14,373 nt of DNA from a virus (lineage: Duplodnaviria > Heunggongvirae > Uroviricota > Caudoviricetes): the IMG/VR virus record IMGVR_UViG_2534681703_000013; one strand, given 5' to 3'. Under the pieces are notes generated by a model. The model was not told the origin of the DNA, ran no database searches, and was given only the letters and a program-made list of their open reading frames with translations. Made by a program: the position numbers and the translations under genes. Position 1 is the stretch's first letter, and each line of letters begins with the position of its first letter. Below are positions 939 to 14,373 of the stretch, one piece after another.

Positions 939-2714
939 CAGTAAAACTCCAGAATGGTGGATGTCAGCGGGGTGCTGATACCGGCGGTGAGTGGCTCATT
1001 TAACAGAGCGTGCATGGTCGCCCAGGCGAGGTCGGCGTGGCTGGCTTCCTCGCTGCGGCTGGCCTCATAGGTGGCGCTGCGTCCGCTGCTGGTCATGGTC
1101 TTGCGGATAGCCATAAACGAGCTGGTGATGTCGGTGGCGCTGACGTCATATTCCAGACAGCCACGGCGGATAACGTCTTTTGCCTTGAGCACCATTGCGG
1201 TTTTCATTTCCGGCGTGTAGCGGATATCGCGCGCGGCGGGATAGAACGAGCGCACGAGCTGGAACACGCCGACACCGAGGCCGGTGGCATCAATACCGAT
1301 GTATTCAACGTTATATTTTTCGGTGAGTTTGCGGATGGATTCTGCCTGGGTGGCAAAGTCCATGCCTTTCCACTGGTGACGCTCAAGTATTCTGAATTTG
1401 CCACCGGCCACCACCGGCGGTGCCAGCACCACGCATCCGGCGCTGTCGCCACGGTGTGACGGGTCGTAACCAATCCAGACCGGGCGGGAGCCGAACGGAT
1501 TGGTGGCAAACGGCGCATAGTCTTCCCATTCTTCCAGCGTGTCGACCATGCAGCGTTGCAGCTCCTCGAACGGGAACACCGACGCCTTGTCGTCAACAAA
1601 TTCACACATGAACAGGTTTTTAAAATCGTCGGCGCTGTTTTCACGTTTGAGCTGCTCAATGTCGAACAGTGTGCAGCCACCTTTCAGGGCGTCCTCAATG
1701 GTGACAATCTGCCGCCACTGGCCGTCCGCACAGAGAAGCCCACCGGCAAGGGCGTTATGACTGACGTCGATTTCCACGCGTTCGGCGGCGCTGGCGCGTC
1801 CCCGGTTAAACAGTTCACCTGACCAGAACGGATAGGCGTCGTGCGCCAGCGTGGACGGGGTGGAGAAATAGGTCGAGCGCAGGTGACTCTGTGAGGCCAT
1901 ACCTGATGCCACCTTACGCAGTACCTGAAAATTCGGGATCCAGAAAATCTCGTCGACGTACAGGTCACCGTTATGGCTCTGTGCGGTGTTGGAGTTGGTG
2001 CCGAGAAAAATCAGTTTTGCGCCGTTATTGCCCAGGACAATCGGGTCACCGGTCAGGTCAACGTCAACCAGCCGGGCAAAGGCGATGATGTATTCGCGGA
2101 ACACATACGCCTGCGTTTTACTGGCCGACAGAAAAATCTGGTTATGACCGGTTTTCAGGGCGCGCAGCAGCGCCTCGCGGGAAAAATAAAACGTTGCGCC
2201 AATCTGGCGGGATTTCAGGATATCGCGGATGCGGTGCTCAAGCCCGGCGCGATACCAGTGCAACTGATAGTCGAAAGACTGCTCAAAGAAAATCTGCTCC
2301 AGCTTTTCGATGGCCTCGTCACTGAAAAAATTCTTTTTCGGTTTGCGACGCCCGCCTTTGTTGCGGTTAGCGACGTTCGGATTAAGGTCTGCCTCGTTGC
2401 CGGTCTGACTGTAACGGTTGACCCGTGCCAGTCGTTCAATCTGGCGTCCGAGCAGGTCAATTTCCTTGAAGTCACCGCCGGTTTTCTGCGGTTTGATGAT
2501 GAGCTGGGTCAGCCGCGCTTCCAGACTCATTTCGACACGGCTGATGGGGGCAACGCTGTCCCAGCCGTCGCGCTGTTTCCAGCTCTGCACCGTCGGGCGT
2601 TTCATCTGCAACATGGCGGCGATCCTGCGGCACGGAAAATCCCTGCCCAGTACCGAGCAGCGCCGCCTGACGACGCGGGTCGTGTAAAAGAGTGGTGTCT
2701 GTGGTGATGGTCAT
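938..2714 (-). CDS. P: Terminase large (ATPase) subunit gpP. The 558-codon ORF 938..2614 is intact, but the likely true N-terminus (ATG at 2712-2714, GAGGT Shine-Dalgarno) is in a different frame, implying a 1-bp indel near 2624-2625.
   Basis: ORF track 938..2614 (558 aa) matches recalled P2 gpP. Frame of ORF 2472..2744 reads MTITTDTTLLHDPRRQAALLGTGQGFSVPQ and then the P frame reads IAAMLQMKRPTVQSW, together a helix-turn-helix-like N-terminus. Spliced length about 591 aa versus about 590 recalled for P2. Confidence 0.85.
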
Positions 2715-2887
2715 GAATACCTCGCCGTGATGAATACACGGCAAGGCTACTGAGTCGCGTCCCGCGATTCGCTAAGGTGCTGTTGTGTCAGTGATAAGCC
2801 ATCCGGGACTGATGGCGGAGGATGCGCATCGTCGGGAAACTGATGCCGACATGTGACTCCTCTAATCACTATTCAGGACTCCTGACA
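2715..2887. promoter_or_regulatory. Divergent late-promoter region between P (leftward) and O (rightward). Contains an imperfect dyad TGT-N12-CCA at 2784..2801 resembling the TGT-N12-ACA activator element of P2 late promoters.
   Basis: 173-bp gap between divergent start codons. Dyad tgtGTCAGTGATAAGcca read directly; its centre lies about 78 nt upstream of the P start codon. Role by analogy to Ogr-dependent P2 late promoters (established knowledge); exact -10 and +1 not determined. Confidence 0.45.
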
Positions 2888-3742
2888 ATGGCAAAAAAAG
2901 TCTCAAAATTCTTTCGTATCGGCGTTGAGGGTGACACCTGTGACGGGCGTGTCATCAGTGCGCAGGATATTCAGGAAATGGCCGAAACCTTTGACCCGCG
3001 TGTCTATGGTTGCCGCATTAACCTGGAACATCTGCGCGGCATCCTGCCTGACGGTATTTTTAAGCGTTATGGCGATGTGGCCGAACTGAAGGCCGAAAAG
3101 ATTGACGATGATTCGGCGCTGAAAGGCAAATGGGCGCTGTTTGCGAAAATCACCCCGACCGATGACCTTATCGCGATGAACAAGGCCGCGCAGAAGGTCT
3201 ACACCTCAATGGAAATTCAGCCGAACTTTGCCAACACCGGCAAATGTTATCTGGTGGGGCTGGCCGTCACCGATGACCCGGCAAGCCTCGGCACGGAATA
3301 CCTGGAATTCTGCCGCACGGCAAAACACAACCCCCTGAACCGCTTCAAATTAAGCCCTGAAAACCTGATTTCAGTGGCAACGCCTGTTGAGCTGGAATTT
3401 GAAGACCTGCCTGAAACCGTGTTCACCGCCCTGACTGAAAAGGTGAAATCCATTTTTGGCCGCAAACAGGCCAGCGATGACGCCCGCCTGAATGACGTGC
3501 ATGAAGCGGTGACCGCTGTTGCTGAACATGTGCAGGAAAAACTGAGTGCCACTGAGCAGCGCCTCGCTGAGATGGAAAACGCCTTTTCCGCACTTAAGCA
3601 GGAGGTGACTGACAGGGCGGATGAAACCAGCCAGGCATTCACCCGCCTGAAAAACAGTCTCGACCACACCGAAAGTCTGACCCAGCAGCGCCGCAGCAAG
3701 GCCACCGGCGGTGGCGGTGACGCCCTGATGACGAACTGCTGA
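2888..3742 (+). CDS. O: Capsid scaffolding protein gpO (284 aa). ORF-track start at 2822 is an upstream extension; ATG at 2888 gives MAKKVSKFFRIGVEGDT.
   Basis: ORF track 2822..3742; internal start gives 284 aa, the length recalled for P2 gpO, with a recognisable N-terminus. Confidence 0.9.
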   Translation: MAKKVSKFFRIGVEGDTCDGRVISAQDIQEMAETFDPRVYGCRINLEHLRGILPDGIFKRYGDVAELKAEKIDDDSALKGKWALFAKITPTDDLIAMNKAAQKVYTSMEIQPNFANTGKCYLVGLAVTDDPASLGTEYLEFCRTAKHNPLNRFKLSPENLISVATPVELEFEDLPETVFTALTEKVKSIFGRKQASDDARLNDVHEAVTAVAEHVQEKLSATEQRLAEMENAFSALKQEVTDRADETSQAFTRLKNSLDHTESLTQQRRSKATGGGGDALMTNC

Positions 3743-3796
3743 CCGGCGTCAGTCCAGGAAAACCTTCACGATTAACCCTTAATTTCAGGAATAACT

Positions 3797-4870
3797 ATGC
3801 GCCAGGAAACCCGCTTTAAATTTAATGCCTACCTGTCCCGTGTTGCCGAACTGAACGGCATCGACGCCGGTGATGTGTCGAAAAAATTCACCGTTGAACC
3901 GTCGGTCACCCAGACCCTGATGAACACCATGCAGGAGTCCTCTGACTTTCTGACCCGCATCAACATTGTGCCGGTCAGCGAAATGAAAGGGGAAAAAATT
4001 GGTATTGGTGTCACCGGCTCCATCGCCAGCACCACCGACACCGCCGGTGGCACCGAGCGTCAGCCGAAGGACTTCTCGAAGCTGGCGTCAAACAAGTACG
4101 AATGCGACCAGATTAACTTCGATTTTTATATCCGCTACAAAACGCTTGACCTGTGGGCGCGTTATCAGGATTTCCAGCTCCGTATCCGTAACGCCATTAT
4201 CAAACGCCAGTCCCTTGATTTAATCATGGCCGGTTTTAACGGCGTGAGGCGTGCCGAAACCTCTGACCGCAGCAGTAATCCGATGCTGCAGGATGTGGCG
4301 GTCGGCTGGCTGCAGAAATACCGCAATGAAGCCCCGGCGCGCGTGATGAGCAAGGTCACTGACGAGGAAGGGCACACCACCTCTGAGGTTATCCGCGTGG
4401 GTAAGGGCGGTGATTATGCCAGCCTTGATGCACTGGTGATGGATGCGACCAACAACCTGATTGAGCCGTGGTATCAGGAAGACCCTGACCTTGTGGTGAT
4501 TGTGGGGCGTCAGCTACTGGCGGACAAGTATTTCCCCATCGTCAACAAGGAGCAGGACAACAGCGAAATGCTGGCCGCTGACGTCATCATCAGCCAGAAA
4601 CGCATCGGTAACCTGCCGGCGGTACGCGTCCCGTACTTCCCGGCGGATGCGATGCTCATCACGAAGCTGGAAAACCTGTCCATCTACTACATGGATGACA
4701 GCCATCGCCGCGTGATTGAGGAAAACCCGAAACTCGACCGCGTGGAGAACTACGAGTCAATGAACATTGATTACGTGGTGGAAGACTACGCCGCCGGTTG
4801 TCTGGTGGAAAAAATTAAGGTCGGTGACTTCTCCACACCGACTAAAGTGACCGCAGAGCCGGGAGCGTAA
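3797..4870 (+). CDS. N: Major capsid protein gpN (357 aa).
   Basis: ORF track 3797..4870; sequence and length match recalled P2 gpN; AGGA ribosome-binding site upstream. Confidence 0.93.
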   Translation: MRQETRFKFNAYLSRVAELNGIDAGDVSKKFTVEPSVTQTLMNTMQESSDFLTRINIVPVSEMKGEKIGIGVTGSIASTTDTAGGTERQPKDFSKLASNKYECDQINFDFYIRYKTLDLWARYQDFQLRIRNAIIKRQSLDLIMAGFNGVRRAETSDRSSNPMLQDVAVGWLQKYRNEAPARVMSKVTDEEGHTTSEVIRVGKGGDYASLDALVMDATNNLIEPWYQEDPDLVVIVGRQLLADKYFPIVNKEQDNSEMLAADVIISQKRIGNLPAVRVPYFPADAMLITKLENLSIYYMDDSHRRVIEENPKLDRVENYESMNIDYVVEDYAAGCLVEKIKVGDFSTPTKVTAEPGA

Positions 4871-4873
4871 CCG

Positions 4874-5617
4874 ATGACGAGTCCCGCACAGCGCCACATG
4901 ATGCGGGTCTCGGCAGCGATGACCGCGCAGCGGGACGCCGCCCCGCTGCGACATGCAACTGTCTATGAGCAGATGCTGGTCAAGCTGGCCGCAGACCAGC
5001 GCACACTGAAAGCGATTTATTCAAAAGAGCTGAAGGCCGCGAAAAAACGCGAACTGCTGCCGTTCTGGTTGCCGTGGGTGAACGGCGTGCTGGAGCAGGG
5101 CAAAGGTGCACAGGATGACATTCTGATGACGGTCATGCTGTGGCGTCTGGATACCGGCGATATTGCCGGTGCGCTGGAGATTGCCCGTTATGCCCTGAAG
5201 TACGGTCTGACCATGCCGGGTAAACACCGCCGCACCCCGCCGTACATGTTCACCGAGGAGGTGGCGCTCGCGGCCATGCGCGCCCACGCTGCCGGTGAGT
5301 CTGTGGATACCCGCCTGCTGACGGAGACCCTTGCACTGACCGCCACGGCAGACATGCCTGATGAAGTGCGCGCAAAGCTGCACAAAATCACCGGTCTGTT
5401 TCTGCGTGACGCTGGTGATGCCGCCGGTGCGCTGGCGCACCTGCAACGTGCGACACAGCTCGACTGTCAGGCAGGCGTCAAAAAAGAGATTGAACGACTG
5501 GAGCGGGAGCTGAAACCGAAGCCGGAGCCGCAGCCAAAAGCGGCCACCCGCGCCCCGCGTAAGACCCGGAGCGTGACACCGGCAAAACGTGGACGCCCGA
5601 AAAAGAAAGCCAGTTAA
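4874..5617 (+). CDS. M: Terminase small/endonuclease subunit gpM (247 aa), with a basic KR-rich C-terminus.
   Basis: ORF track 4874..5617; length and sequence match recalled P2 gpM; starts 4 nt after the N stop. Confidence 0.9.
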   Translation: MTSPAQRHMMRVSAAMTAQRDAAPLRHATVYEQMLVKLAADQRTLKAIYSKELKAAKKRELLPFWLPWVNGVLEQGKGAQDDILMTVMLWRLDTGDIAGALEIARYALKYGLTMPGKHRRTPPYMFTEEVALAAMRAHAAGESVDTRLLTETLALTATADMPDEVRAKLHKITGLFLRDAGDAAGALAHLQRATQLDCQAGVKKEIERLERELKPKPEPQPKAATRAPRKTRSVTPAKRGRPKKKAS

Positions 5618-5716
5618 CAACCGAATGCGCCCCGCGCCAGGGCGGCACGCCGGTCAGTGAGGGTGAATCACCTGACACTGCACCGGCGTCCACCGCCCGA
5701 CTTTTCAGAGGTAGTC

Positions 5717-6226
5717 ATGATGACGCTGATTATTCCGCGAAAGGAGGCTCCCGTGTCCGGTGAGGGTACGGTGGTCATCCCGCAACCGGCAGGCGACGAG
5801 CCGGTGATTAAAAACACGTTCTTTTTTCCCGATATCGACCCGAAGCGCGTCCGGGAACGTATGCGCCTTGAGCAGACCGTCGCCCCCGCCCGTCTGCGTG
5901 AGGCCATCAAGTCAGGCATGGCGGAGACGAATGCGGAGCTGTACGAGTACCGCGAACAGAAAATTGCCGCCGGTTTTACGCGTCTGGCGGACGTCCCGGC
6001 GGACGACATCGACGGTGAAAGCATCAAAGTTTTTTACTACGAGCGCGCCGTGTGTGCGATGGCGACCGCGTCGCTTTATGAGCGTTATCGCGGCGTGGAT
6101 GCCAGTGCGAAAGGCGACAAGAAGGCTGACAGCATTGACAGCACCATTGATGAGCTGTGGCGGGATATGCGCTGGGCGGTGGCGCGTATCCAGGACAAGC
6201 CGCGCTGCATCGTGAGTCAAATCTGA
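5717..6226 (+). CDS. L: Head completion/stabilisation protein gpL (169 aa). ORF-track start at 5657 is an upstream extension; ATG at 5717 (MMTLIIPRKEAP) follows a GAGGT Shine-Dalgarno.
   Basis: ORF track 5657..6226; internal ATG gives 169 aa, the P2 gpL length; stop overlaps the X start (TGATG). Confidence 0.88.
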   Translation: MMTLIIPRKEAPVSGEGTVVIPQPAGDEPVIKNTFFFPDIDPKRVRERMRLEQTVAPARLREAIKSGMAETNAELYEYREQKIAAGFTRLADVPADDIDGESIKVFYYERAVCAMATASLYERYRGVDASAKGDKKADSIDSTIDELWRDMRWAVARIQDKPRCIVSQI

Positions 6227-6429
6227 TGAAGACCTTTGCGCTACAGGGCGACACGCTCGACGCCATTTGTGTCCGGTATTACGGGCGCACTGAGGGCGTG
6301 GTTGAGACCGTGCTCGCCGCAAATCCGGGACTGGCTGAACTGGGCGCGGTGCTGCCACACGGCACCGCCGTCGAACTGCCCGACGTTCAGACCGCGCCCG
6401 TGGCTGAAACTGTCAATCTGTGGGAGTAA
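6226..6429 (+). CDS. X: Tail protein gpX (67 aa, LysM-like).
   Basis: ORF track 6157..6429 contains MKTFALQGDTLDAICVRYYGRTEG... starting at 6226; 67 aa matches P2 gpX. Confidence 0.88.
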   Translation: MKTFALQGDTLDAICVRYYGRTEGVVETVLAANPGLAELGAVLPHGTAVELPDVQTAPVAETVNLWE

Positions 6430-6432
6430 CGC

Positions 6433-6714
6433 ATGACAGCAGAAGAAAAAAGCGTCCTGTCGCTTTTCATGATTGGGGTGCTGATTGTTGTCGGCAAGGT
6501 GCTTGCCGGTGGTGAACCCATCACCCCGCGTCTGTTTATCGGGCGCATGTTGCTCGGTGGTTTTGTCTCGATGGTTGCCGGTGTTGTTCTGGTGCAGTTT
6601 CCTGACCTGTCACTGCCTGCGGTGTGCGGCATCGGCTCCATGCTGGGTATCGCCGGTTATCAGGTGATTGAGATTGCCATTCAGCGCCGCTTTAAGGGCA
6701 GGGGGAAACCGTAA
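6433..6714 (+). CDS. Y: Holin gpY (93 aa).
   Basis: ORF track 6433..6714; hydrophobic segments plus charged C-terminus (RRFKGRGKP); length matches P2 gpY. Confidence 0.9.
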   Translation: MTAEEKSVLSLFMIGVLIVVGKVLAGGEPITPRLFIGRMLLGGFVSMVAGVVLVQFPDLSLPAVCGIGSMLGIAGYQVIEIAIQRRFKGRGKP

Positions 6715-7211
6715 TGCCGGTAATTAACACGCATCAGAATATCGCCGCCTTTCTCGACATGCTGGCCGTGTCCGAAGGGACGGCGAATCATCCGCTGACG
6801 AAAAACCGGGGCTATGACGTGATAGTCACCGGACTGGACGGAAAGCCGGAAATTTTCACCGACTACAGTGACCACCCGTTCGCGCATGGCCGACCGGCGA
6901 AGGTGTTTAACCGTCGCGGTGAAAAATCCACGGCCTCCGGTCGCTATCAGCAGCTTTACCTGTTCTGGCCGCACTACCGCAAACAGCTTGCCCTGCCGGA
7001 TTTCAGTCCGTTGTCACAGGACAGACTCGCCATTCAGTTGATCCGCGAACGCGGTGCACTGGATGACATCCGGGCGGGACGCATTGAGCGCGCCATTTCA
7101 CGCTGTCGCAATATCTGGGCGTCCCTGCCGGGTGCCGGTTACGGTCAGCGTGAGCATTCACTGGAAAAACTGGTCACCGTCTGGCGTACTGCTGGCGGCG
7201 TACCGGCTTAA
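6714..7211 (+). CDS. K: Endolysin gpK (165 aa).
   Basis: ORF track 6714..7211; matches recalled P2 gpK; start overlaps the Y stop (TAATG). Confidence 0.9.
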   Translation: MPVINTHQNIAAFLDMLAVSEGTANHPLTKNRGYDVIVTGLDGKPEIFTDYSDHPFAHGRPAKVFNRRGEKSTASGRYQQLYLFWPHYRKQLALPDFSPLSQDRLAIQLIRERGALDDIRAGRIERAISRCRNIWASLPGAGYGQREHSLEKLVTVWRTAGGVPA

Positions 7212-7225
7212 ACGGAGTAAACACC

Positions 7226-7651
7226 ATGAAGAAATTATCCCTTTCACTGATGCTGAACGTGTCGCTGGCGCTGATGTTGGCACTGTCCCTGATTTACCCG
7301 CAGAGCGTAGCCGTCAATTTTGTCGCTGCCTGGGCGATTCTGGCGACGGTTATCTGTGTGGTTGCCGGTGGTGTCGGCGTGTATGCCACTGAGTATGTGC
7401 TGGAACGCTACGGGCGGGAGCTGCCGCCGGAATCGCTGGCCGTGAAGATTGTCACGGCGCTGTTTTTGCAGCCGGTGCCGTGGCGCAGACGGGCGGCGGC
7501 TCTGGTGGTGATGGTGGTGACGTTTATCTCGCTGGTCGCTGCCGGGTGGATTTTTACTGCGCTGATTTACCTCGTGGCGTCGCTGTTTTTCCGGCTGATA
7601 CGTACGGCCTGCCGTCAGCGTTTTGAGGGGCGGGAACCATGTCAAAACTGA
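7226..7651 (+). CDS. lysA: LysA, membrane protein affecting lysis timing (141 aa).
   Basis: ORF track 7226..7651; multiple hydrophobic helices; position and length as in P2. Confidence 0.85.
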   Translation: MKKLSLSLMLNVSLALMLALSLIYPQSVAVNFVAAWAILATVICVVAGGVGVYATEYVLERYGRELPPESLAVKIVTALFLQPVPWRRRAAALVVMVVTFISLVAAGWIFTALIYLVASLFFRLIRTACRQRFEGREPCQN

Positions 7652-8082
7652 TGATTGTGCTGGTTGTGTTGTTATCACTGGCGGTGGCGGGGCTGTTTCT
7701 GGCGAAGCATGAAAACGCCAGCCTGCGCGCCTCGCTGGACAGGGCGAACAACGTCGCCAGCGGGCAGCAGACGACCATCACCGTGCTGAAAAATCAGCTT
7801 CATGTTGCCCTCACCAGGGCAGACAAAAACGAGCTGGCGCAGGTGGCTCTGCGTCAGGAACTGGAGAACGCCGCGAAGCGTGAAGCACAGCGCGAGAAAA
7901 CCATCACGAGGTTACTTAATGAAAACGAAGATTTTCGCCGCTGGTACGGCGCTGACCTGCCTGATGCTGTGCGCCGGTTGCACCAGCGCCCCGCCTGCAC
8001 CGACGCCAGTGATTGTCCACAACGCCTGCCCGAAAGTGAGTCTTTGCCCGATGCCGGGCAGCGACCCGGAGACGAACGGTGA
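7639..8082 (+). CDS. lysB: LysB, Rz-like inner-membrane spanin (147 aa) with N-terminal transmembrane segment and coiled-coil region.
   Basis: ORF track 7639..8082; N-terminal hydrophobic stretch MSKLMIVLVVLLSLAVAGLFLA; position after lysA. Confidence 0.85.
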   Translation: MSKLMIVLVVLLSLAVAGLFLAKHENASLRASLDRANNVASGQQTTITVLKNQLHVALTRADKNELAQVALRQELENAAKREAQREKTITRLLNENEDFRRWYGADLPDAVRRLHQRPACTDASDCPQRLPESESLPDAGQRPGDER

Positions 8083-8209
8083 TTTAAGTGCCGATATCCG
8101 GCAGCTTGAGAACGCGCTGGCGCGCTGTGCCAGCCAGGTAAAAATGATTAAATACTGTCAGGACGAAAACGATGCTCAAACCCGACAGCCTGCGCAGGGC
8201 GCTGACTGA
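7919..8209 (+). CDS. lysC: LysC, Rz1-like outer-membrane lipoprotein spanin (96 aa), nested in the +1 frame of lysB and extending past it.
   Basis: Within ORF 7802..8209, ATG at 7919 gives MKTKIFAAGTALTCLMLCAGC with a lipobox-like LCAGC; proline-rich after the Cys; 96 aa as recalled for P2 LysC. Confidence 0.8.
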   Translation: MKTKIFAAGTALTCLMLCAGCTSAPPAPTPVIVHNACPKVSLCPMPGSDPETNGDLSADIRQLENALARCASQVKMIKYCQDENDAQTRQPAQGAD

Positions 8210-8639
8210 TGCCGTCACGGTGCTGAAAACTAACCCCGATATGCTGCGGATATTCGTGGATAACGGGAGTATTGCCTCCACGCTGGCGGCGTCGTTGTCA
8301 TTCGAAAAGCGTTACACGCTCAATGTCATTGTGACCGACTTTACCGGTGATTTTGACCTGCTCATTGTGCCAGTGCTGGCGTGGCTGCGGGAAAATCAGC
8401 CCGACATCATGACCACTGACGAAGGTCAGAAAAAGGGCTTCACGTTTTATGCAGACATCAACAATGACAGCAGCTTTGATATCAGTATCAGCCTGATGCT
8501 GACCGAGCGCACGCTGGTCAGTGAGGTGGACGGCGCACTGCATGTGAAGAATATCCCGGAACCTCCGCCGCCGGAGCCGGTCACCCGCCCGGTGGAGCTT
8601 TATATCAATGGCGAACTGGTGAGCAAGTGGGATGAATGA
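8172..8639 (+). CDS. R: Tail completion protein gpR (155 aa).
   Basis: ORF track 8172..8639; matches recalled P2 gpR length and sequence. Confidence 0.88.
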   Translation: MLKPDSLRRALTDAVTVLKTNPDMLRIFVDNGSIASTLAASLSFEKRYTLNVIVTDFTGDFDLLIVPVLAWLRENQPDIMTTDEGQKKGFTFYADINNDSSFDISISLMLTERTLVSEVDGALHVKNIPEPPPPEPVTRPVELYINGELVSKWDE

Positions 8640-9084
8640 GTTTAAGCGTTTTGAAGACCGGCTGACCGGACTTATTGAATCGCTGTCACCGTCAGGGCGT
8701 CGGCGACTGAGCGCCGAACTGGCGAAACGTCTGCGGCAGAGTCAGCAGCGCCGGGTGATGGCACAGAAAGCCCCGGACGGCACACCCTACGCACCACGCC
8801 AGCAGCAGAGCGCCAGAAAAAAGACCGGTCGCGTTAAGCGAAAAATGTTTGCGAAACTTATCACCAGTCGTTTTTTGCATATCCGCGCCAGCCCGGAGCA
8901 GGCATCAATGGAGTTTTACGGCGGGAAGTCGCCGAAAATCGCCAGTGTGCATCAGTTCGGTCTGTCGGAAGAAAACCGGAAAGACGGTAAGAAAATTGAT
9001 TATCCGGCGCGTCCTCTGCTCGGCTTTACCGGTGAGGATGTGCAGATGATTGAAGAGATTATCCTGGCTCACCTCGACCGTTAG
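8632..9084 (+). CDS. S: Tail completion protein gpS (150 aa).
   Basis: ORF track 8632..9084; start overlaps the R end by 8 nt; length matches P2 gpS. Confidence 0.88.
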   Translation: MNEFKRFEDRLTGLIESLSPSGRRRLSAELAKRLRQSQQRRVMAQKAPDGTPYAPRQQQSARKKTGRVKRKMFAKLITSRFLHIRASPEQASMEFYGGKSPKIASVHQFGLSEENRKDGKKIDYPARPLLGFTGEDVQMIEEIILAHLDR

Positions 9085-9116
9085 TTGTGCCATTCCCGAC
9101 ACCTCATCGTCACATT

Positions 9117-9138
9117 GCCGCCGGTATGACCCGGCGGC
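9117..9138 (+). other. Perfect hairpin GCCGCCGG-tatgac-CCGGCGGC (8-bp stem, 6-nt loop) in the S-V intergenic region; possible operon-boundary terminator or 5'-UTR structure of the V transcript.
   Basis: Read directly from sequence; no U-tract follows, so intrinsic-terminator status is uncertain. Confidence 0.35.
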
Positions 9139-9150
9139 ATCCTTCCCGTT

Positions 9151-9786
9151 ATGAACACTCTCGCAAATATTCAGGAACTCGCGCGCGCACTGCGCAACAT
9201 GATCCGCACCGGCATTATCGTCGAAACCGACCTTAACGCCGGTCGCTGCCGTGTGCAGACTGGCGGCATGTGCACCGACTGGCTTCAGTGGCTGACCCAT
9301 CGTGCCGGGCGTTCGTGCACATGGTGGGCACCTTCCGTGGGGGAACAGGTGCTGATTCTGGCCGTGGGCGGTGAACTCGACACGGCGTTCGTTCTGCCGG
9401 GGATTTATTCCGGCGATAACCCTGCGCCGTCTGCGTCGGCGGATGCACTGCATATCCGTTTCCCTGACGGGGCGGTGATTGAGTATGAACCCGAAACCAG
9501 TGCACTCACGGTAAGCGGAATTAAAACGGCCAGCGTAACGGCTTCTGATTCTGTTACTGCCACGGTGCCGGTGGTCATGGTGAAAGCGTTAACCCGCATC
9601 ACCCTGGACACACCGGAGGTGGTCTGCACCAACAGGCTGATTACCGGCACGCTGGAAGTGCAGAAGGGCGGGACGATGCGCGGCAACATTGAACACACCG
9701 GCGGTGAACTCTCATCAAACGGTAAGGTACTGCACACCCATAAACACCCCGGCGACAGCGGCGGCACAACCGGGAGTCCTTTATGA
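9151..9786 (+). CDS. V: Baseplate spike/assembly protein gpV (211 aa).
   Basis: ORF track 9151..9786; matches recalled P2 gpV. Confidence 0.9.
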   Translation: MNTLANIQELARALRNMIRTGIIVETDLNAGRCRVQTGGMCTDWLQWLTHRAGRSCTWWAPSVGEQVLILAVGGELDTAFVLPGIYSGDNPAPSASADALHIRFPDGAVIEYEPETSALTVSGIKTASVTASDSVTATVPVVMVKALTRITLDTPEVVCTNRLITGTLEVQKGGTMRGNIEHTGGELSSNGKVLHTHKHPGDSGGTTGSPL

Positions 9787-10130
9787 CAGCGCGTTATCTC
9801 GGAATGAATCGCAGTGATGGCCTGACGGTCACTGACCTTGAGCATATCAGCCAGAGTATCGGCGATATCCTGCGCACGCCGGTCGGCTCACGGGTGATGC
9901 GTCGTGATTACGGCTCGTTGCTGGCGTCAATGATTGACCAGCCGCAGACCCCGGCGCTTGAGTTGCAGATTAAGGTCGCCTGTTACATGGCCGTGCTGAA
10001 ATGGGAACCCCGCGTCACCCTGTCATCCGTCACCACGGCGCGCAGTTTTGACGGGCGAATGACGGTCACGTTAACCGGTCAGCACAACGACACCGGCCAG
10101 CCACTTTCGTTAACCATCCCTGTGAGTTGA
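9783..10130 (+). CDS. W: Baseplate wedge protein gpW (115 aa).
   Basis: ORF track 9783..10130; ATGA overlap with V; length matches P2 gpW. Confidence 0.9.
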   Translation: MTARYLGMNRSDGLTVTDLEHISQSIGDILRTPVGSRVMRRDYGSLLASMIDQPQTPALELQIKVACYMAVLKWEPRVTLSSVTTARSFDGRMTVTLTGQHNDTGQPLSLTIPVS

Positions 10131-10134
10131 AACC

Positions 10135-11043
10135 ATGCCGATTATCGACCTGAACCAGCTACCCGCACCGGATGTGGTCGAGGAGCTGGACTTTGAAACC
10201 ATTCTTGCCGAACGCAAGGCGACACTGATTTCCCTTTACCCGGAAGACCAGCAGGAGGCGGTCGCCCGTACCCTGACGCTGGAATCCGAGCCTCTCGTCA
10301 AACTGCTGGAGGAAAACGCTTATCGTGAGCTTATCTGGCGTCAGCGTGTGAATGAGGCCGCACGGGCGGTGATGCTGGCCTGTGCCGCCGGTAATGACCT
10401 TGATGTGATTGGTGCCAATTACAACACCACGCGCCTGATTATCGCCCCGGCAGATGATTCGACTATCCCGCCGACACCGGCAGTGATGGAGTCTGACACC
10501 GATTATCGTCTGCGTATTCAGCAGGCGTTTGAGGGCTTAAGCGTCGCCGGGTCGGTGGGAGCCTATCAGTATCATGGTCGCAGTGCCGACGGGCGTGTCG
10601 CGGATATCTCTGTCACCAGTCCGTCTCCGGCCTGCGTCACTATCTCCGTGCTGTCACGTGAAAATAACGGCGTCGCATCCGAAGACCTGCTGGCCGTGGT
10701 GCGTAACGCCCTTAATGGCGAGGACGTCAGGCCGGTGGCCGACCGCGTGACCGTGCAGTCTGCCGCCATTGTTGAATATCAGATAAACGCCACGCTTTAC
10801 CTTTACCCAGGTCCCGAAAGCGAACCCATCCGCGCTGCTGCCGTGAAAAAACTGGAAGCGTACATCACGGCACAGCACCGGCTGGGGCGCGACATCCGTC
10901 TGTCTGCCATTTATGCCGCTTTGCATGTGGAAGGCGTGCAGCGTGTCGAGCTGGCCGCACCACTGGCCGACATCGTGCTCAACAGTACGCAGGCGTCTTT
11001 CTGTACTGAATACCGCGTCGTGACGGGAGGCTCGGATGAGTGA
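10135..11043 (+). CDS. J: Baseplate assembly protein gpJ (302 aa).
   Basis: ORF track 10135..11043; length matches P2 gpJ. Confidence 0.9.
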   Translation: MPIIDLNQLPAPDVVEELDFETILAERKATLISLYPEDQQEAVARTLTLESEPLVKLLEENAYRELIWRQRVNEAARAVMLACAAGNDLDVIGANYNTTRLIIAPADDSTIPPTPAVMESDTDYRLRIQQAFEGLSVAGSVGAYQYHGRSADGRVADISVTSPSPACVTISVLSRENNGVASEDLLAVVRNALNGEDVRPVADRVTVQSAAIVEYQINATLYLYPGPESEPIRAAAVKKLEAYITAQHRLGRDIRLSAIYAALHVEGVQRVELAAPLADIVLNSTQASFCTEYRVVTGGSDE

Positions 11044-11647
11044 TTCGCGACTGCTGCCGACCGGCTCATCACCGCTTGAAGTCGCCGCCGCAAAAGCCTG
11101 TGCGGAAATTGAAAAAACGCCGGTCAGTATTCGTGAGCTGTGGAACCCGGATACCTGTCCGGCAAATCTGCTGCCGTGGCTGGCGTGGTCATTTTCGGTT
11201 GACCGCTGGGATGATAAGTGGCCGGAAGCGACAAAACGCGCTGTTATCCGCGATGCGTATTTCATTCACTGCCATAAGGGCACTATAGGTGCAATCCGCC
11301 GTGTGGTGGAGCCGCTCGGCTATCTGATTGAGGTGAGGGAGTGGTGGCAGCTCAACGAGGAGCCGGGGACGTTCCGCATCGTTGTTGGCGTGCTTGAGCA
11401 GGGTATTACCGAGGAAATGTATCAGGAGCTGGAGCGTCTCGTTGCTGATGCAAAACCTGCAAGCCGCCATCTGACAGGACTGGCTATCAGTTTAAGTACA
11501 ACCGGTAACATTTTTGCCGGTGCAGGATGCTATCACGGCGACGCCCTGACGGTTTATCCCTACACCCCGGAGGCCATTATTGTCGGAGGGGATTATTTCC
11601 CGGCCTCGGCCATTCATTTAATTGATAACCTGAGAGTAAACGCATGA
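11036..11647 (+). CDS. I: Baseplate/tail-fibre attachment protein gpI (203 aa; longer than the about 176 aa I recall for P2).
   Basis: ORF track 11036..11647; start overlaps the J end, stop overlaps the H start (ATGA). Confidence 0.85.
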   Translation: MSDSRLLPTGSSPLEVAAAKACAEIEKTPVSIRELWNPDTCPANLLPWLAWSFSVDRWDDKWPEATKRAVIRDAYFIHCHKGTIGAIRRVVEPLGYLIEVREWWQLNEEPGTFRIVVGVLEQGITEEMYQELERLVADAKPASRHLTGLAISLSTTGNIFAGAGCYHGDALTVYPYTPEAIIVGGDYFPASAIHLIDNLRVNA

Positions 11648-12972
11648 CAGTGAAATACTACGCCATTCTGACTAATCAGGGCGCAGCACGGCTGGCTAAC
11701 GCGACGATGCTCGGCAGTAAGCTGAATCTGACGCAAATGGCCGTTGGTGATGCGAATGGTGTCTTGCCGACACCAGACCCGGCACAGACAAAACTGATTA
11801 ACCAGAAACGCATCGCGCCGCTGAATCTTCTGAGTGTTGATCCGAACAACCAGAGCCAGATTATTGCGGAGCAAATCATCCCTGAGAACGAGGGCGGATT
11901 CTGGATCCGTGAGATTGGGCTTTATGATGATGAAGGCGTACTCATTGCGGTGGCGAACTGCCCGGAAACGTACAAACCGCAGTTGCAGGAAGGCAGTGGT
12001 CGTACCCAGACTATCCGCATGATTCTGGTTGTCACGAATACCGAAGCCATCACGCTGAAAATCGACCCGTCGGTGGTACTGGCGACCCGTAAATACGTGG
12101 ATGATAAAGTCCTGGAATTAAAGCTGTATGTGGATGACCAGATGAGAAACCACATTGCCGCACAGGATCCTCATACCCAGTATGCACAGAAACATAATCC
12201 GACATTTACCGGAGAACCAAAAGCGCCGACGCCTGCCGCAGGAAATAACACCACGCGGATTGCGACCACTGCGTTTGTACAGGCCGCTATTACCGCTCTG
12301 ATTAACGGTGCGCCTGACACGCTGGACACACTGAAAGAAATTGCCGCAGCTATCAACAATGACCCGAAATTCAGTACCACCATTAACAATGCGCTGTCAG
12401 GTAAGCAGCCACTGGATGAGACGCTGACTCATTTGAGTGGAAAGGATGTTGCCGGTCTTCTCGCATACCTTGGTTTGGGAGAAGGCTCTGCATTACCTGT
12501 TGGTGTGCCTGTTCCATGGCCTTCAGCCACACCGCCAACAGGCTGGCTGAAATGCAACGGTGCAGCTTTTTCTGCTGAAGAATACCCGGAACTGGCAAAG
12601 GCTTACCCGACAAATAAATTGCCTGATTTACGCGGTGAATTTATTCGTGGCTGGGATGACGGGCGTGGTATTGATGCTGTACGTGCCTTGCTAAGTCTTC
12701 AGAATGGAGGAGTGGAATCACACACCCACCAAGGGCAGCTCTTCAGAGTTAGTGATTATCGTACAAAAGAAATACCAGCATCAGAAGTTATGGGAAGAGG
12801 ATATATTGCAAGCCTGACGCCGGGTGCTGATAGCCCACTTGATTTTGATGATTATTCTGTATCTTCTAATCCAAATGGATATTTTGTCGGGAATCAGAGA
12901 ACAACAGCATATGGGATAAATGAAACCCGTCCACGGAATATTGCATTTAACTATATCGTGAGGGCTGCATAA
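11644..12972 (+). CDS. H: Tail fibre protein gpH (442 aa): constant N-terminal part followed by a variable C-terminal receptor-binding part containing a phage tail-collar-like motif (VGVPVPWPSATPPTGWLKCNGAAFSAEEYPELAKAYP...PDLRGEFIRGWDDGRGID).
   Basis: ORF track 11644..12972; position after I; collar-like motif recognised by eye; much shorter than recalled P2 gpH (about 669 aa), so mosaic. Confidence 0.85.
   Translation: MTVKYYAILTNQGAARLANATMLGSKLNLTQMAVGDANGVLPTPDPAQTKLINQKRIAPLNLLSVDPNNQSQIIAEQIIPENEGGFWIREIGLYDDEGVLIAVANCPETYKPQLQEGSGRTQTIRMILVVTNTEAITLKIDPSVVLATRKYVDDKVLELKLYVDDQMRNHIAAQDPHTQYAQKHNPTFTGEPKAPTPAAGNNTTRIATTAFVQAAITALINGAPDTLDTLKEIAAAINNDPKFSTTINNALSGKQPLDETLTHLSGKDVAGLLAYLGLGEGSALPVGVPVPWPSATPPTGWLKCNGAAFSAEEYPELAKAYPTNKLPDLRGEFIRGWDDGRGIDAVRALLSLQNGGVESHTHQGQLFRVSDYRTKEIPASEVMGRGYIASLTPGADSPLDFDDYSVSSNPNGYFVGNQRTTAYGINETRPRNIAFNYIVRAA
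12458..12483. other. Candidate site-specific recombination (inversion crossover) site: TTCTCGCATACC-TT-GGTTTGGGAGAA, 12-bp imperfect inverted half-sites around a 2-bp core, Hin/Gin/Cin/Pin type.
   Basis: Read directly. The half-sites match 10/12 as inverted repeats and fit the TTxTCxxAAACC half-site pattern of hix/gix sites. It lies inside H, encoding LLAYLGLGE, just upstream of the collar domain (constant/variable boundary). Confidence 0.6.
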
Positions 12973-13574
12973 TGGATAACGCTGTATTAAATAGCGAGTT
13001 TATTGCTACAAAGGCGGGGAATATTACCGTCTATAACTATGATGGCGAAACACGGGAATATATTTCCACATCAACTGAATATCTTGCTGTGGGTGTCGGT
13101 ATTCCGGCATTTTCCTGTCTGGAGGCACCTGGCATATACAAGGCTGGTTATGCAATTTGTCGCTCTGTGGATTTAAATTCATGGGAATATGTGCCAGACC
13201 ATCGCGGTGAAATCGTCTATAACACCGAAACGGGAGACGCCAAAGAAATCACAGCTCCGGGTGATTACCCCGAAAATACAACCACTATCGCCCCATTAAC
13301 GCCATACGATAAATGGGATGGTGAGAAATGGGTGACCGATACTGAGGCACAGCATTGCGCCGCAGTAGACGCGGCAGAAGCACAGCGCCAGTCACTGATT
13401 GATGCTGCAATGGCTTCCATCAGTCTGATTCAGCTGAAATTACAGGCCGGGCGGAGGCTGACGCAGGCAGAAACCACCCGCCTTAACGCCGTGCTGGATT
13501 ACATTGACACGGTGACGGCAACAGATACCAGCACCGCGCCGGATGTCATCTGGCCTGAACTGCCGGAGGTGTAG
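12972..13574 (+). CDS. G: Tail fibre assembly protein gpG (Tfa, 200 aa).
   Basis: ORF track 12972..13574; TAATG overlap with H; conserved Tfa C-terminal motif DTSTAPDVIWPELPEV. Confidence 0.85.
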   Translation: MDNAVLNSEFIATKAGNITVYNYDGETREYISTSTEYLAVGVGIPAFSCLEAPGIYKAGYAICRSVDLNSWEYVPDHRGEIVYNTETGDAKEITAPGDYPENTTTIAPLTPYDKWDGEKWVTDTEAQHCAAVDAAEAQRQSLIDAAMASISLIQLKLQAGRRLTQAETTRLNAVLDYIDTVTATDTSTAPDVIWPELPEV

Positions 13575-13989
13575 GCCATTCAATATCGGGGGCTGTTGAT
13601 GTATCAACACGCATCAGCAGCACACGGTATTTCTTCCATTGGGTGAGAGTTGAAGTTTCTTCATCAGTTGCGATACCAGCATCAACAGCATCCTGACGCC
13701 AGGATATTTCACTGTCAGCTTTTGCACGAAATGTGGCTTTCATGTTTTCTGCATCTGATATTTTCTGTTCTGGTGAAAGCGGCGGCTCATCAACCCATGC
13801 AAGGGTCCCTGAAACCATTCCCAGCATTTTTCCTGTTGGCTTATTTCCCCCATTAAATCTGACAGCATCCTCATCGCTGATTTCAATACCATCCTGCGGC
13901 CATGTCCCCTCCTTGATATAACTTTCATATAGCGCTGCGTTGTAGATTGCATTTTCGGACGGGCTGTAAACACTTTTAACTTTATTCAT
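13546..13989 (-). CDS. Alternative tail fibre assembly protein (Tfa', 147 aa) on the opposite strand, converging on G and overlapping it by 29 bp.
   Basis: ORF track 13546..13989; C-terminal motif VDTSTAPDIEWPTPP parallels that of gpG; GGGAGA Shine-Dalgarno 7-8 nt upstream of the ATG. Confidence 0.8.
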   Translation of the reverse strand: MNKVKSVYSPSENAIYNAALYESYIKEGTWPQDGIEISDEDAVRFNGGNKPTGKMLGMVSGTLAWVDEPPLSPEQKISDAENMKATFRAKADSEISWRQDAVDAGIATDEETSTLTQWKKYRVLLMRVDTSTAPDIEWPTPPAVQAR

Positions 13990-13993
13990 TCTG

Positions 13994-14373
13994 TTATCTC
14001 CCTTTCGCTATATAGCAAAGATTAAACCCACCGACGCCTGACATACGGGCTGTAAAACCCGTTCTTGAAGTACCAGTTGAGTTAACTCCATAAGCAGGCA
14101 TGGTTGTTGGAGAAAGCAGAGACTCCTGGATATCTGCCATTGTCAGTGTAATTGATTCGACCCGCGCGGGGAAAGGTAGCGGGAAAACAACATTCGTCCC
14201 TGTCTGTCCAACGGGGAAACCGAAAATACCCCATTGTCGTAATTACCCCTTCCGGCCCCTTACTCCATCCAGATTTAGGAATCGGCCAGTCTGCTGCTCC
14301 AGAGTGCCCCGTTGTAAAACTACTCATATCTGGTACTTGCCCGGTATCCGTTCCGACGTTCCTCGTTGCCGCT
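13994..14373 (-). CDS. Alternative tail-fibre C-terminal exon (Sv'-like), partial: open from beyond the window end. Two frames are open; the likely real C-terminus (...FPVGQTGTNVVFPLPFPARVESITLTMADIQESLLSPTTMPAYGVNSTGTSRTGFTARMSGVGGFNLCYIAKGR) ends at 13994, 4 nt before the Tfa' start.
   Basis: ORF track 14082..14327 is in a frame with no stop up to position 14373 (AATRNVGTDTGQVPDMSSFTTGHSGAADWPIPKSGW...). A second frame is open 13994..14242 and ends immediately upstream of Tfa'. Implies a 1-bp indel between 14085 and 14242. Confidence 0.55.

Follow-up and report, generated by a model that had tools for sequence, protein, structure and literature searches.

Our analysis indicates that gene H, in the 14,373-nt stretch of DNA examined here (hereafter the window), very probably encodes a tail fibre belonging to a P2-like (Peduovirus) prophage of E. 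coli, its tip being the arm now expressed from an invertible host-range switch of the Pin/Cin/Gin type. Host range may furthermore vary on two nested levels, i.e., (i) via the invertase switch, and (ii) via homologous-recombination exchange of a ~250-bp, very AT-rich insert cassette, carried on a needle-less gp37-like scaffold with one TfaE-type chaperone folding any insert; toward this fuller account we lean only slightly. The tip itself is a real but ordinary feature of a known and already annotated kind; a protein identical to H is present in NCBI under the name "phage tail-collar fiber domain-containing protein", where it occurs on 20 contigs.

Gene H and its constant part

H occupies a P2-type late-operon position, being preceded by genes matching PF04865 (J) and PF09684 (I) and followed by a PF02413 gene, with relatives annotated alike. 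The late gene order is V-W-J-I-H-tfa, and annotated relatives continue with a recombinase and then with the tail sheath and tube genes. PHROG comparison also yielded matches to tail-fibre families. As the initial annotation had it, the protein is far shorter than P2 H (442 aa vs 669 aa; NC_001895, 12734..14743), and its C-terminus, as read from the ORF translation, is ...ETRPRNIAFNYIVRAA. Coordinates of all features are compiled in Table 1.

Residues 1-281 form the constant part of the fibre, comprising an N-terminal domain, with a presumed role in attachment to the baseplate, and one shaft repeat. Residues 26-258 are ~42% identical to P2 H. The shaft unit is present once in H, and twice in the P2-like H of T22 (499 aa); in P1 S, the stretch bearing the repeated-element annotations b1/b2 shows 62-74% identity to it, and the tail collar fibre of PDB entry 9d93 matches the shaft repeat region (E 7.7e-7). 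Two factors account for the shortness of H: only one shaft repeat, and a compact tip with an 84-aa insert and no long needle.

Table 1. Features of the H locus (positions in the window)
Feature	Position	Strand	Basis or remark
Tail fibre gene H	11644..12972	+	ATG start; intact ORF, 442 aa; constant part and collar-type tip joined in expressed orientation
P2-H-type N-terminal domain, residues 1-150	11644..12093	+	PF12571, E 1.6e-62; whole profile matched
Shaft repeat, single unit, residues 184-266 (NPTFTG...TTAFV...APDTLDTLKEIAAAINNDPKF)	12193..12441	+	Repeat comparison with T22 and P1 S
Left 26-bp crossover site TTCTCGCATACCTTGGTTTGGGAGAA	12458..12483	.	H residues 272-280, in frame, encodes LAYLGLGE
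Collar domain, conserved first part, residues 282-342 (SALPVG...RGWDDGRG)	12487..12669	+	PF07484; structure matches
Hypervariable insert, residues 343-426, 84 aa	12670..12921	+	Flanks conserved, insert unrelated among relatives
Conserved C-terminal segment ETRPRNIAFNYIVRAA	12922..12969	+	Aligns with T4 gp37 C-terminus and 9cuy
TfaE-type tail fibre assembly chaperone, 200 aa	12972..13574	+	PF02413, E 3.9e-32; cognate to collar tip
Second tail fibre assembly chaperone, 147 aa	13546..13989	-	PF02413, E 9.8e-33; phrog_188; cognate to alternative tip
Alternative tip Hv', gp53-like C-terminal domain	13994..14373	-	PF21882, E 9e-8; runs past window end
Right-hand crossover site TTCTCCCAAACCAACGTTTATGAAAA	14373..14373	.	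Only first base in window; remainder and invertase gene beyond

A collar-type tip with a hypervariable insert

Residues 282-442 of H form a compact tip, in which a collar scaffold (residues 282-342 plus the last 16 residues) brackets the 84-aa hypervariable insert. The tail-collar-like motif proposed in the initial annotation corresponds to PF07484 "Collar" at residues 287-334 (E 3.5e-15; score 56.1 bits, cut-off 24). By sequence, the collar matches the tip of T4 gp37 (2xgf; E 6.9e-17 with a single sequence, 9.5e-20 with a profile), as well as 9cuy (E 2.2e-16) and gp12 (1ocy/5iv5); by structure, a Foldseek search with the tip model returned 2xgf, 5iv5, and 1ocy as the best matches (E 1.5e-7). 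DNA identity between H and K-12 stfE amounts to 87-95% over the first part of the collar.

Structure prediction, which had been suggested for the tip, was informative for the scaffold but not for the insert. A first AF2 run with 20 close homologues aligned gave a mean pLDDT of 36 and was unusable, whereas a second run with 88 diverse sequences (mean pLDDT 61.9) modelled the collar and C-terminus with confidence, at pLDDT 78-94 over residues 282-342 and 67-82 over the C-terminal segment; this model is a monomer and cannot show trimer topology. The insert remained below pLDDT 50 in both runs, its fold not being modelled, and for that reason its receptor-binding role, return topology, and metal binding rest on analogy. 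The last 22 residues of H align with the C-terminus of T4 gp37 (...NIAFNYIVRLA, the form shared by the two being ...NIAFNYIVR(A/L)A), and the C-terminal segment is invariant or almost invariant in two homologue alignments. The T4 gp37 chain turns back to reach its collar (PMC12609058), and the C-terminal segment of H presumably returns likewise to complete its collar.

The fibre would be a trimer. As in T4 gp37, each chain would run out from the collar, build a distal receptor-binding surface with its insert, and come back to the collar; the insert is probably the surface that contacts the receptor. It contains one HxH motif (SHTH, residues 359-362, 12718-12729), which aligns with the AHSHS motif of T4 gp37, the first HxH of that protein, and its histidines might coordinate a metal ion at the three-fold axis. 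Counting against such a role, the T22 insert allele has no HxH motif. H lacks a long needle of the gp37 type with its HxH series, having a single HxH and only 84 residues between the collar segments.

The insert is the most AT-rich part of H (GC 0.42, GC3 0.25). In K-12 stfE, T22, and pro483, the flanks are conserved and the insert is unrelated to that of H; several discrete insert alleles occur among close homologues, and the allele of H is shared by just 1 of 150 cluster representatives (P0125, at 69% identity). Members of the collar-tip family normally have compact inserts, of 42-96 aa. Comparison of these relatives shows that the insert is exchanged as a sub-cassette within conserved flanks; this second mosaic level consists of a ~250-bp hypervariable cassette within the conserved collar scaffold and is nested under the crossover-site junction. 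In a phage collection of ~50,000 records, 1161 had collar-level similarity and none carried the insert at full length (best full-length identity, 61%); the insert allele is absent from isolated phages in that collection. A protein search with the insert alone returned 4 fragments and missed known insert-bearing proteins, a word-index limit that renders it uninformative.

Mosaicism and spread of the tip

The proposal that H is mosaic was borne out: its DNA is 97.3% identical to that of phage pro483 up to position 12484, the end of the crossover site, where identity stops. Horizontal exchange of the tip as a module likewise found support, as the tip occurs at 98-100% protein identity fused at LGLGEG, which the crossover site encodes, to two unrelated N-termini (P0011 and the e14 StfP-like P0019), and also as "off" ORFs. 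Joined at the crossover site, the collar tip follows other fibre bodies in e14-like, P2-like, and P1/p15B-like elements. Its overall range is 91-100% identity across e14-like elements, the P2 remnant of BL21(DE3), and a P1/p15B-like plasmid. The insert allele is present in 140 of 5426 complete E. coli genomes (2.6%), its carriers including the defective P2-like prophage of BL21(DE3), with the tip "off", and the P1/p15B-like plasmid; of 142 records that match the tip allele, 131 conserve it at 95-100%. The plasmid, pMB9698_1, encodes seven tandem collar tips with different inserts and one Tfa, next to a recombinase, and one of these seven is the 91% identical copy of the H tip.

Crossover sites, invertible segment, and chaperones

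Two inverted 26-bp sites with an AAACC-NN-GGTTT core flank the variable parts. The right site, one base of which is in the window, is complete in the 99.3%-identical locus L001 (site at 9373-9398, recombinase gene at 9454-10047). The left site is identical in HCM-28C-2, the T22 P2-like prophage, and pro483, matches the K-12 e14 site at 23/26 positions, and aligns with the annotated P1 cix (up to 21/26) and Mu gix (17-18/26) sites; the right-hand site likewise aligns with cix and gix sites, and its sequence equals that of the e14 site adjoining pinE. Within the segment, the H tip (Hv) and tfa lie on the + strand, and tfa' and Hv' on the - strand, with the constant part of H outside. An invertase gene directly follows the right site in HCM-28C-2 ("recombinase family protein"), pro483, and T22 ("DNA invertase").

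When orientations are compared across these different genomes, the collar cassette is "on" here and "off" in pro483, BL21(DE3), and AR_0013. A serine invertase encoded past the window end would flip the segment, such that the collar tip and its chaperone would be replaced by the gp53-like tip and its own chaperone, with a change in host range. Inversion has been experimentally demonstrated in EPEC P2-like prophages and in e14 (PMC4272514). Because the window ends before the invertase gene and contains just one base of the right site, we infer switching at the H locus from near-identical genomes, a circumstance that counts against our explanation. So does the frameshift of Hv' in the window sequence, caused by an extra C at 14238; the reading frame is intact (143 aa) in HCM-28C-2.

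The TfaE-type chaperone is 88% identical to K-12 TfaE and 92% to that of T22; the GC content of its N-terminal half is 0.437, and that of its C-terminal half is 0.559, i.e., normal. The second chaperone is not expressed from the late operon in the present orientation. The two Tfa proteins are alike only in their C-terminal ~74 residues (36-38% identity to each other's relatives), and a modular Tfa model, in which the N-terminal domain varies and the C-terminal domain is conserved, is attributed to North et al. 2019, as cited in PMC9608196. Tfa would recognise the conserved collar scaffold and drive trimerisation. Work on PinQ/StfE2 in anti-phage activity (PMC12529663) was set aside as a guide to function, since it concerns the gp53-like arm and not the collar arm.

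Base composition

The visual impression in the initial annotation that the DNA is AT-richer from about 12500 to the window end holds on average: windowed GC is 0.480 over 12500-14373, against 0.572 over 1-11643, and is below every upstream window of equal length (minimum 0.541). The low-GC region is however patchy rather than uniform, with two troughs at 12650-13250 (0.40-0.47) and 13600-14100 (0.43-0.455) separated by normal sequence at 13300-13600 (0.565), and the fall begins earlier, GC being lower (0.52-0.54) already from ~11250. The tip (12484-12972) has a GC content of 0.462, less than every upstream 489-nt window (minimum 0.503, mean 0.574, sd 0.025) and ~4.5 sd under upstream windows of equal size. 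At third codon positions, GC is 0.465 in H, 0.348 in the collar, and 0.25 in the insert, compared to 0.60-0.71 in upstream genes and 0.57 in gene I. Uniform GC without a collar match had been set beforehand as the outcome opposing a mosaic tip; what was found is a GC trough in the tip, together with PF07484.

Low GC was also found in the same module family elsewhere, i.e., in K-12 e14, pro483, and T22. Such composition is the mark of a mobile module that has had a separate evolutionary history, and need not mean that the module arrived recently. In P1-like elements, too, low-GC hot spots have been described at the loci that determine host range (PMC6906374).

Discussion

The AT-richness of the tip could in principle be a local compositional effect, arising from amino-acid usage or chance and not from horizontal exchange, and the somewhat low GC throughout gene I and the constant part of H (0.52-0.55), as well as the patchiness of the low-GC region, would agree with this. 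Yet the fall is strongest at synonymous third positions (0.25-0.35 vs 0.60-0.71), the tip lies ~4.5 sd below same-size upstream windows, the low-GC boundaries fall together with those of sequence homology, the same module is found in three unrelated element types, and low-GC hot spots at P1-like host-range determinants have a precedent (PMC6906374); we consider such a local effect very improbable. Similarly doubtful to the same degree is that H owes its shortness to truncation or decay within a defective prophage and does not function as a fibre, despite its being 227 aa shorter than P2 H and despite frameshifting insertions in the portal, terminase, and alternative-tip genes on the same contig. 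The H ORF is intact and ends in the invariant C-terminal motif of its family; the exact protein is found on 20 contigs, and 131 of 142 matching records show 95-100% conservation of the tip allele; the sequenced phage pro483, with the same constant part, has an even shorter H (399 aa); inserts of 42-96 aa are usual in the family; and all frameshifts are single-base insertions that look like draft-sequence error. Those in the portal and terminase genes, at positions 276 and 2624-2655, are private, being absent from the ~1500-1600 complete E. coli genomes with these regions, and that in Hv' is absent from the closest relative. If real, however, the portal and terminase insertions would mean that no infectious particles arise from the prophage, which counts against our explanation. 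A decaying tailocin-like element, as might be read from the frameshifted portal and terminase genes, was also considered and is unsupported, with the single-base insertions fitting draft-sequence error better.

A further alternative is that Tfa, rather than the fibre insert, is the adhesin, with Tfa staying on the tip and setting the receptor, in the manner of gp38 on T2 gp37 or of the role put forward for Mu Tfa, and the collar tip being merely an adaptor. The Tfa proteins of Mu and Ur-lambda do stay in the virion, that of Mu being said to aid receptor recognition (PMC9608196), and the N-terminal half of Tfa here is AT-rich, as is the tip. This arrangement is nonetheless unlikely: Tfa is 88-92% identical between loci with unrelated inserts, and in pMB9698_1 one Tfa gene serves seven different collar tips. 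It is accordingly the insert, and not Tfa, that carries the variation and hence the specificity.

The tip decides to which bacteria the phage, or a tailocin derived from it, attaches, and knowledge of its module boundaries thus helps in predicting host range and in engineering fibres. Many inserts of 50-100 aa appear to be accommodated by one conserved scaffold with one chaperone, which would make for a handy chassis for specificity swaps. Our understanding of phage biology is unchanged: mosaic tail fibres have long been known, as have invertible host-range segments and host-range modules of low GC, and the exact protein is deposited and correctly named.

Comparison with known systems

In bacteriophage P2, gpH likewise follows gene I (82% identical to its counterpart here) and shares the N-terminal PF12571 family; P2 H, at 669 aa, differs in having neither an invertible segment nor a match to the collar tip, and the sole match of P2 G here is a weak one, to the second Tfa (40% over 63 aa). 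The multiple-inversion regions of P1/p15B-like elements (Min-type), P1 C, and Mu G use the same recombination-site family as the H locus. The P1-like plasmid combines many tips with one Tfa, whereas the locus here has two tips and two Tfa proteins. The comparison of fibre tips proposed in the initial annotation showed related collars in e14 and P2-like prophages, but not in Mu and P1, whose variable tips had no similarity to the collar tip (tblastn, E 1e-3); only a match to the P1 S shaft repeat and a weak Tfa C-terminal match were obtained.

The T4 gp37 tip (2XGF) and the gp12 collar (1OCY, 5IV5) are homologous to the H tip in both sequence and fold. T4 fibres employ the chaperones gp57A and gp38, unlike the Tfa proteins here. 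The gp37 tip includes a small head and a long needle, built of six strands and containing seven HxH iron sites (PMC12609058), whereas that of H has 84 residues, one HxH, and no long needle.

The P segment of K-12 e14 (stfP, tfaP, tfaE, stfE, pinE) has the same design as the segment here (PMC12529663), and the same two tip classes, the collar tip (stfE) being paired with TfaE and the gp53-like tip with another Tfa. The right site is identical and the left matches at 23/26 positions, with TfaE 88% and collar DNA 87-95% identical. The fibre body is another one, with a short StfP N-terminus, and the insert is unrelated, such that the tips are 58% identical overall; moreover, the collar arm of K-12 e14 is off and annotated as a pseudogene, whereas here it is on.

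Among P2-like phages and prophages, Escherichia phage pro483, "P2" of E. coli O157:H43 T22, and the prophages of EPEC E2348/69 share the late-gene order found here. Such P2-like invertible loci have two convergent tfa genes and a collar-type tip as in H, with the invertase adjoining in these relatives. In pro483 and T22, the constant part of H is 97-98% identical to that here, and the left site is identical. The insert allele of H differs from those of these relatives. T22 differs further in having two shaft repeats (499 aa) instead of one and a second cassette (tfa' and Hv') that is just 35% related, and pro483 in its opposite orientation, the collar tip being off in pro483 and on in the window.

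Domain composition and length of tail fibre H

The tail fibre gene H is intact and joins a PF12571 domain to a tip (residues 282–442; nt 12484–12972) built on a tail Collar scaffold, with a crossover site lying in frame between them. The initial annotation had described H as short relative to P2, with a collar-like motif past the crossover site; both points held, with P2 H having 669 aa and the Pfam search returning PF07484 at 56.1 bits vs a cut-off of 24. The shortness has two reasons, namely a single shaft repeat unit and a compact tip. In T22 (P2-like prophage 'P2' of E. coli O157:H43 T22), H contains two such units in 499 aa, compared to the one here, and is otherwise 97.7% identical. In protein sequence the unit is also 62–74% identical to a stretch of the P1 tail fibre S where repeated elements b1/b2 are annotated; this adds another mosaic connection between P1 fibres and P2-like ones.

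Features of the window and of other loci carrying its fibre tip
Feature	Position	Strand	Size	Remarks
Portal gene Q	about 1-938	-		one extra T at 276 vs pro483, causing a frameshift
Terminase large subunit gene	938-2714	-		four extra bases at 2624, 2648, 2653, 2655 vs pro483
Gene I	11036-11647		203 aa	176 aa in P2
H	11644..12972	+	442 aa	intact ORF; C-terminal end ...ETRPRNIAFNYIVRAA
PF12571 in H	residues 1-150			E 1.6e-62 (Pfam)
Shaft repeat unit	12193-12441			single copy; H residues 184-266
Left crossover site	12458-12483		26 bp	TTCTCGCATACCTTGGTTTGGGAGAA; palindrome-like; in frame, H residues 272-280, LAYLGLGE
Tail Collar domain PF07484 in H	residues 287-334			E 3.5e-15 (Pfam)
Tfa	12972-13574	+	200 aa	downstream of collar tip
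Second Tfa	13546-13989	-	147 aa
Alternative tip Hv'	13994-14373	-		gp53-like C-terminal (PF21882); extends past window end
Right crossover site	first base 14373 (window's last base)			TTCTCCCAAACCAACGTTTATGAAAA; located from HCM-28C-2 chromosome (99.3% identical)
Carrier of tip			279 aa	N-terminus MAKNDFKAF...
Carrier of tip			263 aa	e14 StfP-like N-terminus MHRIDTKTAQ...
BL21(DE3) tip	L006 4474-5283 = NC_012971.2 about 891083-891892			97.9% DNA identity to window tip
Recombinase, pMB9698_1	L007 2777-3349
Seven collar tips, pMB9698_1	L007 3421-6783			promoter-less, tandem
Single Tfa gene, pMB9698_1	L007 6789-7400

The invertible segment

Beyond the left crossover site lie two arms on opposite strands, each pairing a tip with its cognate tail fibre assembly (Tfa) chaperone. 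In HCM-28C-2, the right site is followed by a recombinase gene and then the tail sheath gene. The site adjoining pinE in the K-12 element e14 is identical to the right site, while the e14 left site matches ours at 23/26 positions; in P1 and Mu alignments, both sites coincide with the annotated cix and gix positions. Arms on both strands and crossover sites of the e14/cix/gix kind together point to an invertible host-range segment of the Pin/Cin/Gin type, oriented so that the collar arm is expressed. The adjacent serine invertase would invert this segment, as demonstrated for e14 and for EPEC P2-like prophages (PMC4272514).

Relative to HCM-28C-2, where the Hv' ORF is intact (143 aa), Hv' has an extra C in a C-run at 14238 that causes a frameshift; if this insertion is real, inversion would give a truncated fibre. 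At their 3' ends the two convergent tfa genes share 29 bp (13546–13574), so mid-segment there is no gap between genes in which a terminator could sit. The sequence breaks off at the first base of the right site (14373); this may reflect repetition of the site and invertase in other prophages, or the presence of both orientations among the reads. Two 350-aa proteins, one from Citrobacter sedlakii and one from a JGI record, sit in the same 90%-identity cluster as the 200-aa Tfa under the name 'site-specific DNA-methyltransferase'; this may be a fusion, or else an oddity of clustering or annotation.

Exchange of the tip and of its insert

DNA identity of 97% to pro483 (a sequenced P2-like Escherichia phage), vB_EcoM-640R3 and others ends with the last base of the left site, at 12483/12484. 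The constant part of H and the two sites are the same in pro483; however, the tip expressed by that phage is a gp53-like one, giving an H of 399 aa, and its collar tip is off, whereas the collar tip is on in the window. Protein searches revealed the window tip, at 98–100% identity, fused to either of two unrelated N-terminal parts, with LGLGEG at the junction, as well as in 'off' ORFs of about 179 aa, and the insert allele occurs in 140/5426 complete E. coli genomes. The defective P2-like prophage of BL21(DE3) carries the same tip allele, off, beside a truncated recombinase pseudogene, so the invertase switch there is probably locked; other E. coli B derivatives also carry the allele, off in the defective P2-like prophage. 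The module thus spans element types, with the 96-kb P1/p15B-like plasmid pMB9698_1 (NZ_CP103469.1) holding a 91% identical copy as one among seven tandem collar tips. Among the seven, collar and C-terminal segments are close to identical and the inserts (60–100 aa) all differ, making the plasmid a library of inserts that nature has built on a single scaffold. The earlier suggestion of a horizontally exchanged module is borne out by this occurrence of the same tip on unrelated N-terminal parts, in the BL21(DE3) prophage and in a P1/p15B-like plasmid.

Mosaicism extends into the tip itself, as seen when its DNA was compared with K-12 stfE (of e14) and the P2-like T22 and pro483. Collar DNA (12460–12690) is 78–95% identical and the stretch from 12925 through the tfa gene 77–100% identical, with the intervening insert (about 12670–12921; residues 343–426) being unalignable. 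Close homologues of the tip fall into several discrete insert alleles. An exhaustive search matched 13,101 cluster representatives (E <= 1e-3), and among the best 150 of these the window's insert was common only to P0125, at 69% identity; no isolated phage in the phage collection searched carries it. Inserts in the collar-tip family are mostly 42–96 aa, with an HxH near the start in about half. Between loci whose inserts are unrelated, Tfa remains 88–92% identical. A variable insert on a conserved scaffold, together with a near-constant Tfa, indicates that specificity would map to the insert, with Tfa probably recognising the conserved scaffold. The fibre would assemble as a trimer, and the insert would form the distal surface that binds the receptor and carry a single metal site on the axis. 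Tfa would assist folding, which would start at the C-terminus, following the model that PMC9608196 credits to North et al. 2019.

Base composition and alternative explanations

AT-richness had been proposed, by eye, from about 12500 to the window end. Windowed GC content upheld this overall, with 12500–14373 (0.480) below every upstream window of equal length (minimum 0.541) and positions 1–11643 averaging 0.572, but the effect is patchy: troughs at 12650–13250 and 13600–14100 flank a normal stretch at 13300–13600 (0.565), and a slight fall begins from about 11250. The tip (12484–12972) has a GC content of 0.462, lower than every upstream 489-nt window (minimum 0.503, mean 0.574, SD 0.025). 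Chance or amino-acid-driven composition is excluded as the cause, given GC3 values of 0.348 for the collar and 0.25 for the insert compared to 0.60–0.71 for upstream genes (gene I excepted, 0.57), and given that the boundaries of composition and of homology coincide. In K-12, T22 and pro483, inserts are also low in GC (0.41–0.48), and collar GC3 is low in all alleles examined. Low-GC hot spots at host-range determinants are documented for P1-like elements (PMC6906374). The low-GC signal identifies a mobile module that has followed a history of its own, though by itself it gives no date for arrival in this prophage.

That H is instead a degenerate remnant is unlikely, since its ORF is intact, its protein recurs on 20 contigs, pro483 H is shorter still and compact inserts are typical of the collar-tip family. 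It is likewise unlikely that Tfa is the real adhesin, as seven inserts are served by one Tfa and Tfa hardly varies.

Prophage setting

The window corresponds to the late region of an E. coli prophage of the P2-like (Peduovirus) kind and is 97.9% identical to pro483 over 12.5 kb; its genes run in the order portal, terminase, scaffold, capsid, small terminase, head completion, lysis genes, tail completion, V, W, J, I, H, tfa. The portal ORF stops at 249 and reading goes on in a different frame; the responsible T was in none of ~1600 complete E. coli genomes with the region (best matches 150/151 nt), so it is an error of the draft sequence or else an inactivating mutation private to this prophage. 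Because of the extra bases at the 5' end of the terminase gene, its first ~30 codons are not in frame with the remainder, and translation from the first in-frame ATG gives 558 aa instead of 590; the insertions were in none of the ~1500 matching complete E. coli genomes (best matches 157/161 nt). Relative to pro483, 4 nt are missing at 3747, in the space that separates capsid gene N from scaffold gene O. Gene I is 82% identical to P2 I across the first 175 aa, but is longer by a C-terminal stretch of ~27 aa that pro483 I also has; the GC3 of gene I is already under that of genes further upstream.

Comparison with known systems

By sequence, the best solved relatives of the tip are the T4 gp37 tip 2XGF (E 6.9e-17; profile 9.5e-20), short tail fibre 9CUY (E 2.2e-16; profile 3.9e-21) and T4 gp12. 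The gp37 alignment spans the collar and first HxH (VESHTHQG vs VKAHSHSA in gp37), and the last 22 residues align separately (...NIAFNYIVRAA vs ...NIAFNYIVRLA). Structure prediction of the tip recovered the collar fold but not a confident insert: AF2 gave a pLDDT of 36 from a shallow alignment, and with 88 diverse sequences 78–94 for the collar, 67–82 for the C-terminal strand and <50 for the insert, with Foldseek against the PDB placing 2XGF first (E 1.5e-7) and gp12 entries next. The gp37 chain runs from the collar into a needle with seven HxH iron sites and a small head, then back to the collar (PMC12609058). The window's tip would work like a gp37-type tip but without the long needle; it is best kept apart from full members of the gp37 (collar, needle, head) architecture.

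The NCBI entry for the exact 442-aa protein reads 'phage tail-collar fiber domain-containing protein'. That P2, P1, Mu, lambda and T4 swap segments of their tail fibres has been textbook knowledge since the early 1990s, reportedly through work by Haggard-Ljungquist et al. in 1992 and Sandmeier et al. in 1992 and 1994. P2-like prophages with invertible fibre tips have already been described (PMC4272514), and the mosaic collar-tip H, a correct reading, is an ordinary one of this already known kind.
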